DNA of 64,000 nt from a virus: the IMG/VR virus record IMGVR_UViG_3300041583_000385, positions 1 through 64,000 of that record. The stretch is one strand, 5' to 3'. Every line of letters starts with the position of its first letter. The stretch's first letter is position 1. The translations under genes were made by a program, and so were the position numbers. The notes beneath the pieces were generated by a model, which was not told the DNA's origin, ran no database searches, and saw only the letters and a program-made list of their open reading frames with translations. Positions 8,720 to 24,594 of this stretch are shown here, piece by piece.

Positions 8720-9913
8720 CTTAAATTTTTCTATCTCTAACCTTTTAATCTCTTTACCTAATTCAGCACCTTTAAACCCTTTATCCATTAACTCCTTAGA
8801 TGAAATAGATGGTTTGTAATCAACGAACTTAATAGTATCCTCATCTTCTACACCATTAACATCTAACCATTCTAATAGAGTGGAATCTATAATAGCACAT
8901 TGTTGTCTCTTTTTATAAGTATCCAATACCAAATCTGGTTTAAATGATAAAAGTGATATTAAGAATACAATCTTGGTTGATAATTTACCAATATACCCAG
9001 TTCCTTCTGATGAATCTGGTATTTTATAATCTTGTATCAATCTATTTGTTAAACCATCTAGTGATTCATTTTTAAATAAGTTAGCCAAAACAACAGTCAA
9101 ATCTTTACTCTCAACTAAATTAGTATTAATGTTAGCACCTGGGAAAACTTCATCCCACATATCATACTTAGTAAAGAAGTTTAAGTAGTAGTTGAAATCC
9201 TTTGCTTGTTTCCAAGCTTTCAACATTTCTTCCCAAACTCTTTCTTGTGAAATTCTTTTCATTTCACCGGTATCTGGATCAATATTTTCTAGTTGTTTTC
9301 TTTTCTTAATTGCTTTCTCTGTATCAATATGCAATGGGTGTTCGTACCTAGAAGCAAATCTAAATGCTCTAAGAATTCTAAGTGAATCTTCTTCAAACCT
9401 CTCAATTGGATCACCAACCATTCTAGTAATACCAGATTCTAAATCCTTTCTACCACCAGTTAAATCAATAATTTCTCTCTTATCTAAATCATAGAATAAT
9501 GCGTTATAAGTTATATCTCTACGCTTAACATCATCCTCAATAGTAACACCAAGTTTAACCTCAGGATTTCTACCTTTACTAATATCTTCTCTAAATGTAG
9601 CAACTTCCATTCCTTCCGGAATCTCTTTAGTGTAAATTACAACAACACCAAATGCCTTACCTTGTAAGTTAGTTCTATATTTACCTTCAACAATTTCTAA
9701 CACTTCATCAGGAAGAGCATCTGTTGCTAAATCAAAATCTTTTGGTGTATCATTTGTTAAGAAATCACGCACTGATCCACCAACAAGGTATAGTTTCTTA
9801 CCACTTGCTTGAAAAAGTTTATGTAATTCTTTAACTGAATCTGGAATTATTTCCCACATATCTTGTTCTGTTTTAGTTGATTCTAAAAATTTTATGTATT
9901 TTTTAATTATCAT
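8714..9913 (-). CDS. cca: CCA-adding tRNA nucleotidyltransferase
   Basis: LVGGSVRD, DFDLATD, EVATFR, DVKRRDITYNAL, RFEEDSLRILRAFRF, ISQERV; N-terminus MIIKKYIKFLES. Confidence 0.9.
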   Translation of the reverse strand: MIIKKYIKFLESTKTEQDMWEIIPDSVKELHKLFQASGKKLYLVGGSVRDFLTNDTPKDFDLATDALPDEVLEIVEGKYRTNLQGKAFGVVVIYTKEIPEGMEVATFREDISKGRNPEVKLGVTIEDDVKRRDITYNALFYDLDKREIIDLTGGRKDLESGITRMVGDPIERFEEDSLRILRAFRFASRYEHPLHIDTEKAIKKRKQLENIDPDTGEMKRISQERVWEEMLKAWKQAKDFNYYLNFFTKYDMWDEVFPGANINTNLVESKDLTVVLANLFKNESLDGLTNRLIQDYKIPDSSEGTGYIGKLSTKIVFLISLLSFKPDLVLDTYKKRQQCAIIDSTLLEWLDVNGVEDEDTIKFVDYKPSISSKELMDKGFKGAELGKEIKRLEIEKFKS

Positions 9914-17533: not shown

Positions 17534-17646
17534 GAACTTGTTCGATCGTCCAAATTTTAGGTTCTCTTTTGAACCTAAAATTAAACATCATCGAATACTC
17601 TTCGTTTCTATTAAACTTTACACTATTATACATTGAATCTTTTTTG

Positions 17647-17717
17647 TGACTGAAATGGGGATCGAACCCATACCAAGGAGTTTAGAATTCCCTATTCTAA
17701 CATTAAACTATTCAATC
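17647..17717 (-). tRNA. tRNA with CUA anticodon (amber suppressor type), no encoded CCA
   Basis: Acceptor GATTGAA/TTCAGTC, D arm GTTT-AATGTTA-GAAT, anticodon arm GGGAA-TTCTAAA-CTCCT, T arm ATGGG-TTCGATC-CCCAT, discriminator A; 71 nt. Confidence 0.8.
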
Positions 17718-22276: not shown

Positions 22277-22699
22277 TCATAAAATTTGATTTAATTTATT
22301 ATCTCTATATGTGGAAAGGCTTATACCCTTCTCTATATCAAATAATATATACTCCATATCTTCAATAGATGGGTTCATATCACTACAATATTTTTCTTTA
22401 ACAGAATCTCTTATCAATACAACAGATTTACAATTATATGTTGTTACATACATACTACCATTTGGTAATGTTTTATTTCTAATCCATATAGATGGTGATT
22501 TTTCTATCTCCCATTTATTATCTGATAATGTATATTTTACTTCCATTTCATACTCAGTGGAATCTTCTCCATGTGCGGTTAATGATCTCTTATGAGTTCG
22601 ATATTTAGAAGATGGTGATTTCTCACGCCATACCAATGCACCAGAATTGGTGACACCACATAGTGACTCCATTACCCCATTTAACCTATCTTCCACCAT
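22277..22699 (-). CDS. Hypothetical protein, C-terminal tag
   Basis: Ends YRDNKLNQIL. Confidence 0.7.
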   Translation of the reverse strand: MVEDRLNGVMESLCGVTNSGALVWREKSPSSKYRTHKRSLTAHGEDSTEYEMEVKYTLSDNKWEIEKSPSIWIRNKTLPNGSMYVTTYNCKSVVLIRDSVKEKYCSDMNPSIEDMEYILFDIEKGISLSTYRDNKLNQIL

Positions 22700-22898
22700 A
22701 TTTGAAATTTTTATTAACCCAACCTACTGAGAAATTATTATATTCATTTGCATATAATATGTGATTTAAACAAACCATAACCTCTACATCCTCATTATCT
22801 ACATAAAGTACTTCATAAGTTTTACCCTTCTCGAAGAGTGGCATATTCATTATGTTCGTTATTTCATTTATACAAATTAATTTGTCTCCTTTTCTCAT
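22686..22898 (-). CDS. Small SH3-like hypothetical protein
   Basis: KGDKLIC...FEKGKTYEV. Confidence 0.6.
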   Translation of the reverse strand: MRKGDKLICINEITNIMNMPLFEKGKTYEVLYVDNEDVEVMVCLNHILYANEYNNFSVGWVNKNFKYGGR

Positions 22899-22920
22899 AT
22901 ATTTTTTATTAAAAAATTAG

Positions 22921-23156
22921 TATAAGTTGAGCTTACCCAACATTTTGCTTTATGCTATCATCTATCTATTGCCACAAACCCGACCATCAAAGGGGAACCG
23001 ATACCCTAGGTCTGTACGTGTCGCTACTTCCGTGGTGCTAACGACTATCCGAAGACCGCCTCCCACGTTAGGTTCAGTAGTGTCGAGGTTTCTCCAGTAT
23101 CTCTATAAATGAGATTTACACCCTTACGGGACCGGCGATAGCTTCTCTGACTTATA
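22921..23156 (-). ncRNA. rnpB: Compact RNase P RNA-like gene
   Basis: GC-rich island; P1 TATAAGT/ACTTATA, P2 GCTATCG/TGATAGC, P3 CCGGT/ACTGG, P4 pseudoknot ACC-U-CGACA/TGTTGGGT with bulged U after GGAGAA and CAAAA, CRII-like GCACCACGGAAG, CRIV-like TAGATAGATGAT, GUAA and UUCG tetraloops. Confidence 0.75.
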
Positions 23157-23633
23157 CTAATTTATTATTAATGCTAAATTATATTCTCTTTTTAATTTCA
23201 TTGTCCAAGTTTCCACCTTCTGTTTAACTAGGCGATGTAAACAATTATATTCTCTTTTATTAATTTCTTCTAAGTTACCAATATGTTTAGTAAATAATGA
23301 CATTAAATCTTCTGGTGTCATTATATCATTAAATCTACCACTAGGATCCAATAGGTTAATTTCGTTTATGAAATTAATTATAGGTAATACTTCATACCAG
23401 TTTTCACCCTTTTTATCCCATGTATTAAACCATTTACGTATAACTAAATGAAAATATGATTTATTTTCTAAAAAAAACTCATATGTCATATTTACCTCTT
23501 TTGGTTTAATACCAATATATTTATCCCATTTTTCAATTAGATAATCTTTATCACAGTCTAATACTTTAATATCCATCGTTTGATGGAAATTAAATGTGAA
23601 ATTAATAAGGTTATCTAATTGTCCCTTTGTCAT
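23157..23633 (-). CDS. Hypothetical protein, C-terminal tag variant
   Basis: Ends KREYNLALIIN. Confidence 0.65.
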   Translation of the reverse strand: MTKGQLDNLINFTFNFHQTMDIKVLDCDKDYLIEKWDKYIGIKPKEVNMTYEFFLENKSYFHLVIRKWFNTWDKKGENWYEVLPIINFINEINLLDPSGRFNDIMTPEDLMSLFTKHIGNLEEINKREYNCLHRLVKQKVETWTMKLKREYNLALIIN

Positions 23634-23706: not shown

Positions 23707-24594
23707 ATGAAAATAAAACATAAAGTTATAAAAGAGTTTCAATATCTTAGTCCAGATAAGAAAATCTTCATATTAAAACTTGGTACTATACTAAACAACT
23801 ATAATTATAAAATTAAAGATGAATTGATATTAGTTGATAAAGATATAATTGATAATAATCCACAATATTTTCAAGTAGTTGATTGGAAAGAAGAGATTCA
23901 CTCATTTATAAAAACAAATAAATTACCATCACCAAAAACATTAGCTAATAAGCTAATACCGTTTATGGAGGATATGATATTATCATCTATGGCTAAAAGT
24001 ACTGATACTGGTGCACAAGTAGATGAAGATAGATTAAAAGAAATCGAAAGTAAAGAATCTGATTTAAATAATAGAGAGAAGAGAATTAAAAGTAAAGAAG
24101 AAGAACTTGAAATTAGATCAAACAGAGTTGAGAAGAGAGAGGAAGATTATAGAGAATGTCTTAAAGATTTAGATAGTAAAGAAGATTCACTCAGAGAAAA
24201 ATCTAAAGATTTAAAAGAAAGAGAATTGGATGTGCAAGATAAGTTACAAGATATTAACGAAAAGGAAAGAAACCTTGATAGAACTATATTAGAATCATCT
24301 AAAGATATCGATATTAAATATACTGAGTTACAATCAAAAATTGATAAAGATTTAAAAACTGTTACTGAGAAAGAGAAAGGATTAGAAATAACCGCAAAGG
24401 ATATTAAAAAGAGAGAAGATAAACTCTTAGATAGGGAAGATGAAATAGATGATTTATTAAGAGATATAGAAAGAAAGAAAGAAGAATTTCAAGATTGGGG
24501 TGAAGAGGTAGTTAAATTAGACCAAGAAATAAAAGATTGGGAAAAACTACATTGGAAGTTCAAAAGATTGAAGAAGCCGCCTTCTGCTATTTAA
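23707..24594 (+). CDS. Coiled-coil protein
   Basis: Long E/K/R heptad-rich region; TATATA upstream. Confidence 0.7.
   Translation: MKIKHKVIKEFQYLSPDKKIFILKLGTILNNYNYKIKDELILVDKDIIDNNPQYFQVVDWKEEIHSFIKTNKLPSPKTLANKLIPFMEDMILSSMAKSTDTGAQVDEDRLKEIESKESDLNNREKRIKSKEEELEIRSNRVEKREEDYRECLKDLDSKEDSLREKSKDLKERELDVQDKLQDINEKERNLDRTILESSKDIDIKYTELQSKIDKDLKTVTEKEKGLEITAKDIKKREDKLLDREDEIDDLLRDIERKKEEFQDWGEEVVKLDQEIKDWEKLHWKFKRLKKPPSAI

Follow-up and report, generated by a model that had tools for sequence, protein, structure and literature searches.

The stretch of DNA analysed here—64,000 nucleotides, referred to as the window—is AT-rich (~28% GC) and belongs to a fragment of a huge phage, whose source record holds 86,322 bases at a CheckV completeness of 12%. 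Between two minus-strand open reading frames (23157–23633 and 22686–22898) sits a GC-rich island: measured in 100-nt windows, its GC content is 0.48–0.53 over 22950–23149, with flanks that lie mostly at 0.19–0.33 and rise to 0.40–0.42 at 22550–22699. The original prediction had proposed a minimal RNase P-like RNA of about 236 nt (22921–23156) in a GC-rich intergenic island. The GC profile and the map of reading frames confirm the island, and strand and ends could be refined. The gene lies on the minus strand, on which the quoted P4 helix (ACC-U-CGACA/UGUUGGGU) reads, and the claimed extent holds for the RNA gene, with ends slightly further out (~245 nt, 22911–23160). R1—a covariance model made from four sequences of the window's clade—matches the minus strand at 22901–23165 with 299 bits. 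The elements of the gene are collected in Table 1.

Table 1. Elements of the RNA gene in the window, ordered 5' to 3' along the minus strand after the whole gene and the promoter-like site.
Feature	Position in window	Strand	Basis or remark
Whole mini RNase P RNA gene (candidate), P1 5' strand to P1 3' strand plus U6	~22911..23160	minus	R1 match and helix coordinates
Sigma-70-like promoter match TGGACA-18-TATAAT, 11/12	23178..23207	minus	~17 nt upstream of P1; lead only
P1 5' strand UUAGUAUAAGU	23150..23160	minus	RNAalifold and helix coordinates
P2 5' strand GCUAUC	23137..23142	minus	6/6 paired with 22954-22959
P3: CCGGU/ACUGG, inner CCC-GUAA-GGG hairpin, window-specific extra hairpin	23094..23135	minus	Alignment, RNAalifold
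J3/4 (AGAA) and P4 5' strand ACC-U-CGACA, bulged U at 23086	23081..23093	minus	RNAalifold, anchored parse
P5 5' strand CUACU, 3' strand AGUAG	23076..23080 / 23024-23028	minus	Parse, pairing count
P6 5' strand GAACC, partner GGUUC in P17 loop	23071..23075 / 22995-22999	minus	Anchored parse
P7 (CGUGG/CCACG) enclosing 27-nt stub with UUCG hairpin	23031..23067	minus	Sole remnant of specificity domain
J5/15 (CGA), P15 (CAC/GUG), L15 (GUACA/GGGUUU, holds GGU), P16 (GACC/GGUC), P17 hairpin (AGGG/CCCU)	22973..23023	minus	Anchored parse
J15/2 GCAAUAGAUAGAU, without P18 hairpin	22960..22972	minus	Anchored parse
P2 3' strand GAUAGC	22954..22959	minus	Crosses P4, forming a pseudoknot
J2/4 AUAAAGCAAAA; relatives read ...AAACAGAA	22943..22953	minus	Anchored parse
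P4 3' strand UGUUGGGU	22935..22942	minus	8/8 paired
P1 3' strand ACUUAUACUAA, U6 next at 22911-22916	22917..22927	minus	RNAalifold and helix coordinates

P1 comprises 11 bp and is followed directly by the run of six U. A terminator scan of the region found no site, so we only infer the 3' end of the RNA at P1 and U6. The promoter-like match upstream of P1 is the best sigma-70-like site of the region, and its TATAAT is kept in 4/4 homologues; the scan itself is not enriched, with 12 sites versus 10.9 expected. Single-sequence folding energy (z −2.69 for the plus strand and −2.00 for the minus strand) was rejected as evidence, because these values choose neither a strand nor a structure.

Relatives of the RNA are found in other phages. 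With blastn, a single phage record is matched: LR745206.1, of 634,780 bp, with 88.5% identity. Pattern scans added two IMG/VR contigs of 483 kb (G002) and 313 kb, and a 20-mer pattern in metagenomes matched six stretches, five of which are real contigs. The sixth (L034) lies in a contig of 61% GC and was discarded as a chance match; a 16-mer pattern gave 17 stretches, only two of them real and both already known. R1 finds a single strong copy in each of four related records—the window's own and three of huge phages—and 19 other viral records give weaker yet significant matches. R1 detects no copy in the 281-kb genome of an unrelated phage, G001 (best 12.8 bits); this genome encodes a protein 40% identical to the upstream one, with no RNA beside it, and is likewise without RnpA. 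Outside the close kin, synteny gave no lead. A pattern of two conserved junction blocks yielded 25 IMG/VR stretches, of which 23 were new; 16 of these 23 match R1 at 27–95 bits, and seven (L057, L063, L066, L067, L071, L076, and L081) are without a significant R1 match. The step from the window to its relatives is made by R1 at 27–139 bits (E 1e-7 to 1e-45). Among close relatives, the RNA is 88–98% identical, versus 65–77% for the upstream 158-aa protein, so the RNA is much more strongly constrained than its neighbours.

The window RNA itself matches nothing in Rfam, neither at the gathering score nor at E ≤ 10, and whole-record searches of the window-clade records with RF00010, RF00011, RF00373, and RF02357 gave no match at E ≤ 10. 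The link of the window RNA to RNase P is therefore transitive, and it runs through a total of 11 relatives that are Rfam-positive. The copy of G008 (L052) matches RF00373 (RNaseP_arch) at 30.7 bits and E 2.2e-7 with the whole model covered, in an alignment that deletes a 14+14+89-position block of the S-domain. In whole-record searches of pattern-derived records, RF00373 matches eight at 25–41 bits (E 9e-12 to 9e-8) and RF00010 matches four over the full length at 32–49 bits (E 5e-15 to 3e-10). Every one of these matches coincides in position with an R1 match. In cmscan, the G004 copy reached 6.4 bits (E 8.6), and the G009 copy gave no match. The search with Rfam RNase P models that the original prediction had suggested as a check is thus negative for the window RNA and positive for 11 relatives at the same loci. 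No relative reaches a gathering threshold—25–49 bits against cut-offs of 84–100—and with scores so far below the cut-offs such genes go unannotated: Rfam models at curated thresholds miss the mini RNase P RNA family.

In its junctions, the window's clade departs from most relatives. The blocks GAGGA, ACAGAA, and UAGAUAAAUGAU of the relatives align to consensus blocks of RF00373; in L052, the J2/4 position aligns with the ACAGAA block and the J15/2 position with the uAGucGAAUG block of that model. The window's clade reads GAGAA (J3/4), GCAAAA (J2/4), and UAGAUAGAUGAU (J15/2), whereas most relatives read GAGGA and ACAGAA; 16 of the relatives were found with a search pattern that itself contained the J15/2 and J2/4 blocks, which leaves only J3/4 unbiased for them. 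The distant relatives G004, G008, and G009 carry GAGGAA... and ...ACAGAA/ACAGGA, and their P4 is fully compensatory (AGU-U-CGCGA/UCGCGGCU and AAU-U-CAACA/(A)GUUGAUU).

The fold is carried by pairing that is kept while the letters change. From four homologues, RNAalifold predicted a P4-like helix, bulged U included, without being prompted. The substitutions of close relatives keep the pairing: in P4, C-G becomes U-G and G-U becomes G-C, and in P17 of LR745206, AGGG/CCCU becomes AGGA/UCCU. On an alignment of 21 sequences (A6), pairing was counted for P1, P1b, P3, P4, P5, and P7 as in R1, with P2 added as a pseudoknot. Of the cells, 96.6% are paired, versus 69.8 ± 1.0% in shuffles, none of which (0/500) reaches the observed value; the nested helices are hereby counted on a model-fitted alignment, which favours pairing. 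Forty of the 46 pairs change on both sides, as do 17/17 pairs of P1 and P1b across the family. The covariation score is 0.553, compared with 0.150 in shuffles and 0.05–0.08 when partners are slid by 1–3 columns—controls in which pairing amounts to 31–42%. P2, which stands outside the model structure, is 96.6% paired with 4/6 pairs changing on both sides; for P4, the values are 97.6% of cells and 7/8 pairs. A lack of covariation in these two helices was among the outcomes named as refuting the original prediction, and both covary in the pairing counts. By conservation and covariation together, the island stands beyond chance.

A motif-anchored grammar, in which P2 and P4 are taken at fixed offsets, parsed 18 of the 21 sequences; the three others—L079, cut by a contig end, L069, matched in part, and L078, with a different stub—were kept in the 21-sequence count. 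All 18 parsed sequences pair P2 at 6/6 (10 versions) and P4 at 7–8/8 (12 versions), against means of 4.5/6 and 5.1/8 with partners swapped between rows, and all 18 keep the P4 geometry of 3 bp, bulged U, and 5 bp. The divergent yet compensatory P4 that had been claimed for the window is borne out by these 12 versions and by the changes on both sides of its pairs. P6, which joins the loop of the P17 hairpin to the strand between P5 and P7, appears as a 5-bp Watson–Crick match in 14 of 15 distinct rows versus 6 of 178 mismatched controls, with eight different strands. P15 (3 bp) occurs in seven versions and P16 in 10 among the parsed sequences; for these two helices, as for P5 and P7, partners were picked by best pairing and the counts lean upward. 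The 3' strand of L15 holds GGU in 15/15 distinct rows.

P1, P2, P3, P5/P7, and the P4 pseudoknot with the bulged U, as originally proposed, accordingly hold at the level of paired cells given above, with P4 found by RNAalifold. So does the reduced S-domain: a specificity domain of P8–P14 is absent, with 27 nt between the P7 strands in the window and 19–69 nt across the family, and the stub hairpin contains a pair that varies as AU, GU, or GC among close relatives. The statement that P15–P18 are apparently missing holds for P18 only, as J15/2 is without a hairpin; P15, P16, and P17 are present, as are the P6 pseudoknot and the GGU of L15. The RNA hence keeps P1–P5, the P4 and P6 pseudoknots, and P15/L15-GGU/P16/P17, and has lost P18 and the S-domain except for P7 and the 27-nt stub.

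Individual copies vary around this plan. The window's P3 bears an extra small hairpin (13+1 nt, ~23101–23115, minus strand) that is missing from all close relatives and from the RNA-library contigs. In L051:1501–1781 (minus strand), a hairpin of ~37 nt is inserted between the P2 3' strand and J2/4. L079:1885–2196 (plus strand) retains a hairpin resembling P18 together with a long arm of the S-domain, and the stub of L065:5425–5702 (plus strand) is 69 nt long and AU-rich.

A rival reading takes the locus for an unrelated structured phage RNA (riboswitch, retron RNA, intron, or guide RNA) that resembles RNase P only by chance, or for a GC-rich coding remnant. The window copy is without a direct Rfam match, and a plus-strand open frame of 61 aa crosses the island. 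Against this, 11 relatives tie the family to RF00373 and RF00010 with significant scores, G-U pairs in the 21-sequence covariation count are compatible with the minus strand only, and a Pfam search of the neighbouring proteins revealed neither a reverse transcriptase nor a nuclease as partner. We thus regard such an origin as extremely improbable. Protein coding was rejected, as the 61-aa frame is without relatives; a group I intron, retron RNA, guide RNA, and riboswitch were set aside, with no Rfam match and no neighbouring Pfam family above the cut-off in the four proteins searched. One neighbouring frame (23707–24594, plus strand) encodes a charge-rich, probably coiled-coil protein of 295 aa, with RNase_Y_N at E 0.0013 and 18.6 bits, below the cut-off of 32.

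RNase P RNA is the ribozyme that trims new tRNAs, and its specificity domain (P8–P14) reads the tRNA elbow; in the bacterial type A, the RNA measures nearly 400 nt. The phage RNA follows this type (RF00010; E. coli M1 RNA/rnpB; clan CL00002) in its helix order—P1–P7 ... P15-L15(GGU)-P16-P17 ... P2'-P4'-P1'—and shares with it the pseudoknots, the bulged U of P4, a 6-bp P2, and a 3-nt J5/15, with bacterial RnpA as the likely partner. It differs in being phage-encoded and about half-sized at ~245 nt, in the 27-nt stub that replaces P8–P14, in the lack of P18, and in the rewritten P4 sequence of the window's clade; its relatives score far below the RF00010 gathering score of 100 bits. On sequence and pairing evidence, we consider the locus most probably (roughly 0.8) a minus-strand gene for a miniature RNase P RNA, in which phages have kept the bacterial type-A catalytic domain. 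Homology to RNase P RNA as such appears nearly certain.

Similar reductions are known from elsewhere. The archaeal type T of Thermoproteaceae (RF02357) is a natural RNA that keeps the catalytic domain and has lost most of the specificity domain; its P2 has 3 bp, its P15 is shortened, and the linker between P5 and P15 measures 2 nt (PMC3579882). In the phage RNA, P2 comprises 6 bp and the P5/P15 linker 3 nt, and the protein partner would be bacterial RnpA instead of archaeal RPPs. RF02357 matches 0/4 window-clade records at E ≤ 10, which speaks against membership in type T. Another counterpart comes from the laboratory: the E. coli C-domain alone (Eco CP RPR) is catalytic with and without protein, the P6-type contact matters in it, and, with the S-domain gone, it can do without P18 (PMC5839562). 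The phage RNA has the exactly matching set, with P6 kept and P18 and the S-domain lost. Unlike the laboratory truncation, it occurs naturally as a conserved family of genes that has a stub and an RnpA lineage of its own.

Among viruses, the camelpox (orthopoxvirus) RNase P-like RNA is reported as virus-encoded and proposed to resemble RNase P RNA, yet without pre-tRNA processing and of only loose structural likeness (PMC3001073). The phage family, by contrast, matches covariance models significantly, covaries fully, and has a gene for a partner protein. In the literature searched, we found no report of a phage-encoded RNase P RNA or RnpA, the only viral case being the inactive camelpox look-alike.

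The partner protein is found in the window's sister genomes. PF00825 (RnpA) scores above its curated cut-off in LR745206.1 (49 bits, 115-aa frame; RnpA at 76444–76752) and in IMGVR_UViG_3300027996_002186 (G002, 483 kb, 98% complete; 45.7 bits). An identical RnpA gene lies on a second contig of the sample of G003, and the phage RnpA proteins carry an RNR-type motif (FRRAVDRNRIKRLMRE). As RnpA is present and no other RNase P RNA was recognised in the sister records, the mini RNA is the only recognisable candidate there. A search with an RnpA alignment gave seven further viral contigs, three of which are matched by R1 (G004 at 139 bits, G009 at 54.8, and G008 at 50); the remaining four are fragments of 3–22% completeness. 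Loci of the phage RnpA are L037:1977–2279 and L038:1948–2253, both on the plus strand. In the window's own 86-kb fragment no RnpA was found, nor in any of 24 further records searched (0/24), which include four carrier records that are at least 90% complete. The pair of RNA and RnpA is hence not obligatory, and most carriers would need the RnpA of their host, or none. The suggestion that the RNA possibly uses host RnpA need thus not hold in the window's clade, whose sister genomes encode the protein; other carriers are without the gene.

The phage RnpA proteins have 345 relatives in protein databases, and the 120 of them listed are 43–99% identical and mostly 94–119 aa long (range 60–145). Cellular proteins are more distant: for the best of 470 relatives in 185,579 species genomes, full-length identity does not exceed 43%, one partial segment reaches 51%, and all but one of the best 80 of these 470 are titled Bacteroidota—the exception being a Sphingomonadales MAG. 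This distribution points to a phage-specific RnpA lineage of putative Bacteroidota origin.

Such an RNA could also be a homologue that does not cut, and instead acts as a decoy or sponge for host RnpA or pre-tRNAs and weakens tRNA maturation in the host. The specificity domain is gone, P4, J3/4, and J2/4 of the window's clade depart from the consensus, and with RnpA in 0/24 further records the RNA would meet host RnpA; the pox-virus RNase P-like RNA was reported to be inactive, and a decoy role was considered for it (PMC3001073). A sponge, however, has no need of an active site, and this is what covaries and is kept: the bulged U, the 3+5-bp P4, the A-rich junctions, P6, and the GGU of L15. 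The window's clade moreover carries, in its sister genomes, an RnpA of its own, and engineered C-domains are active (PMC5839562). We consider the decoy quite unlikely. The mini RNA is probably an active, if putative, ribozyme, and a catalytic function in the 5' processing of pre-tRNAs is predicted with good confidence.

Candidate substrates lie in the same genomes. LR745206.1 holds 61 tRNA genes, and 17 of the 19 other carrier records hold 3–60; the mini RNA adjoins tRNA genes in G015, G031, and G022. The link is uneven: in the window, 5 kb separate the mini RNA from the nearest tRNA, G002 has only four tRNA genes, and G008 has none. An active ribozyme might hence have other main substrates—host pre-tRNAs after host shut-off, phage or host mRNAs, or other structured RNAs. 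The loss of the elbow-reading domain should relax the choice of substrate, and both G002 (98% complete) and G008 bear RNA and RnpA with few tRNA genes or no tRNA match. The tRNA genes in 17/19 carrier records, up to 60, and in LR745206.1, together with the adjacency in at least three records, argue against this alternative, which we take as unlikely; pre-tRNAs of the phage would remain the favoured substrates.

The window also encodes a PolyA_pol domain (PF01743, 109 bits; 9428–9793, minus strand) in a 399-aa frame, a nucleotidyltransferase of the CCA-adding type. Its tRNA at 17647–17717 (minus strand; RF00005 55.9 bits) has the anticodon CUA of an amber suppressor and is called 'Pyl' by ARAGORN; the letters that follow it, at 17640–17646, are CAAAAAA. 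In an array of LR745206.1 (L162, 387800–390400), CAA stands directly after 16 of 19 tRNA genes, the others being followed by CAT, CTA, and CGA, and CCA by none (0/19). CAA after the tRNAs may be a conserved 3' trailer signal, which may bear on the pairing partner of the GGU in L15.

Six RNA runs contain part of the window according to the run index. In 4/4 marine RNA libraries, from four studies, one contig each falls on the gene, with lengths of 274, 161, 191, and 204 nt and coordinates 22911–23161, 22903–23056, 22937–23141, and 22936–23149. As these are assembled contigs, neither strand nor ends nor level can be read from them, and DNA carry-over is possible. The flanks at 22700–22890 and 23180–23400 are uncovered in the four runs, which by the mapping rule carries no weight as evidence; flanks of relatives may be less than 80% alike. 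The 274-nt contig (depth 34, run X19) joins 23161 to 22911 with seven letters between them, and its first 30 letters are repeated at its end; the seven letters match the natural flanks of a relative. This end-to-end joint could reflect a circular RNA, a tandem product, or an artefact of template switching or reverse transcription.

The following course of events can be proposed. The RNA would be made as a discrete species of ~245 nt. In the window's clade, it would bind the phage's own RnpA as its putative partner, and carrier phages without an RnpA gene might use that of the host. Recognition of the substrate would proceed via the acceptor stem, the leader, and the 3' end, and not via the tRNA elbow. 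Huge phages might thereby bring a complete two-subunit RNase P—a ribozyme consisting of the catalytic domain only and a phage-specific RnpA, without elbow reading—which we put forward tentatively, at somewhat less than even odds. If true, these phages would not depend on the host enzyme for maturing their tRNAs, and perhaps further RNAs, with a natural minimal RNase P and with tRNAs that carry C-A-A, not CCA, after the discriminator.

RNase P RNA is usually treated as a cellular housekeeping ribozyme. A conserved, expressed phage family that consists only of the catalytic domain would offer a natural test of the minimal size of a working RNase P, in which P6 is kept and P18 and the S-domain are dropped, as the truncation biochemistry predicts. 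It would also widen the range of translation-related functions that large phages have taken over, with some clades bringing an RnpA of their own.
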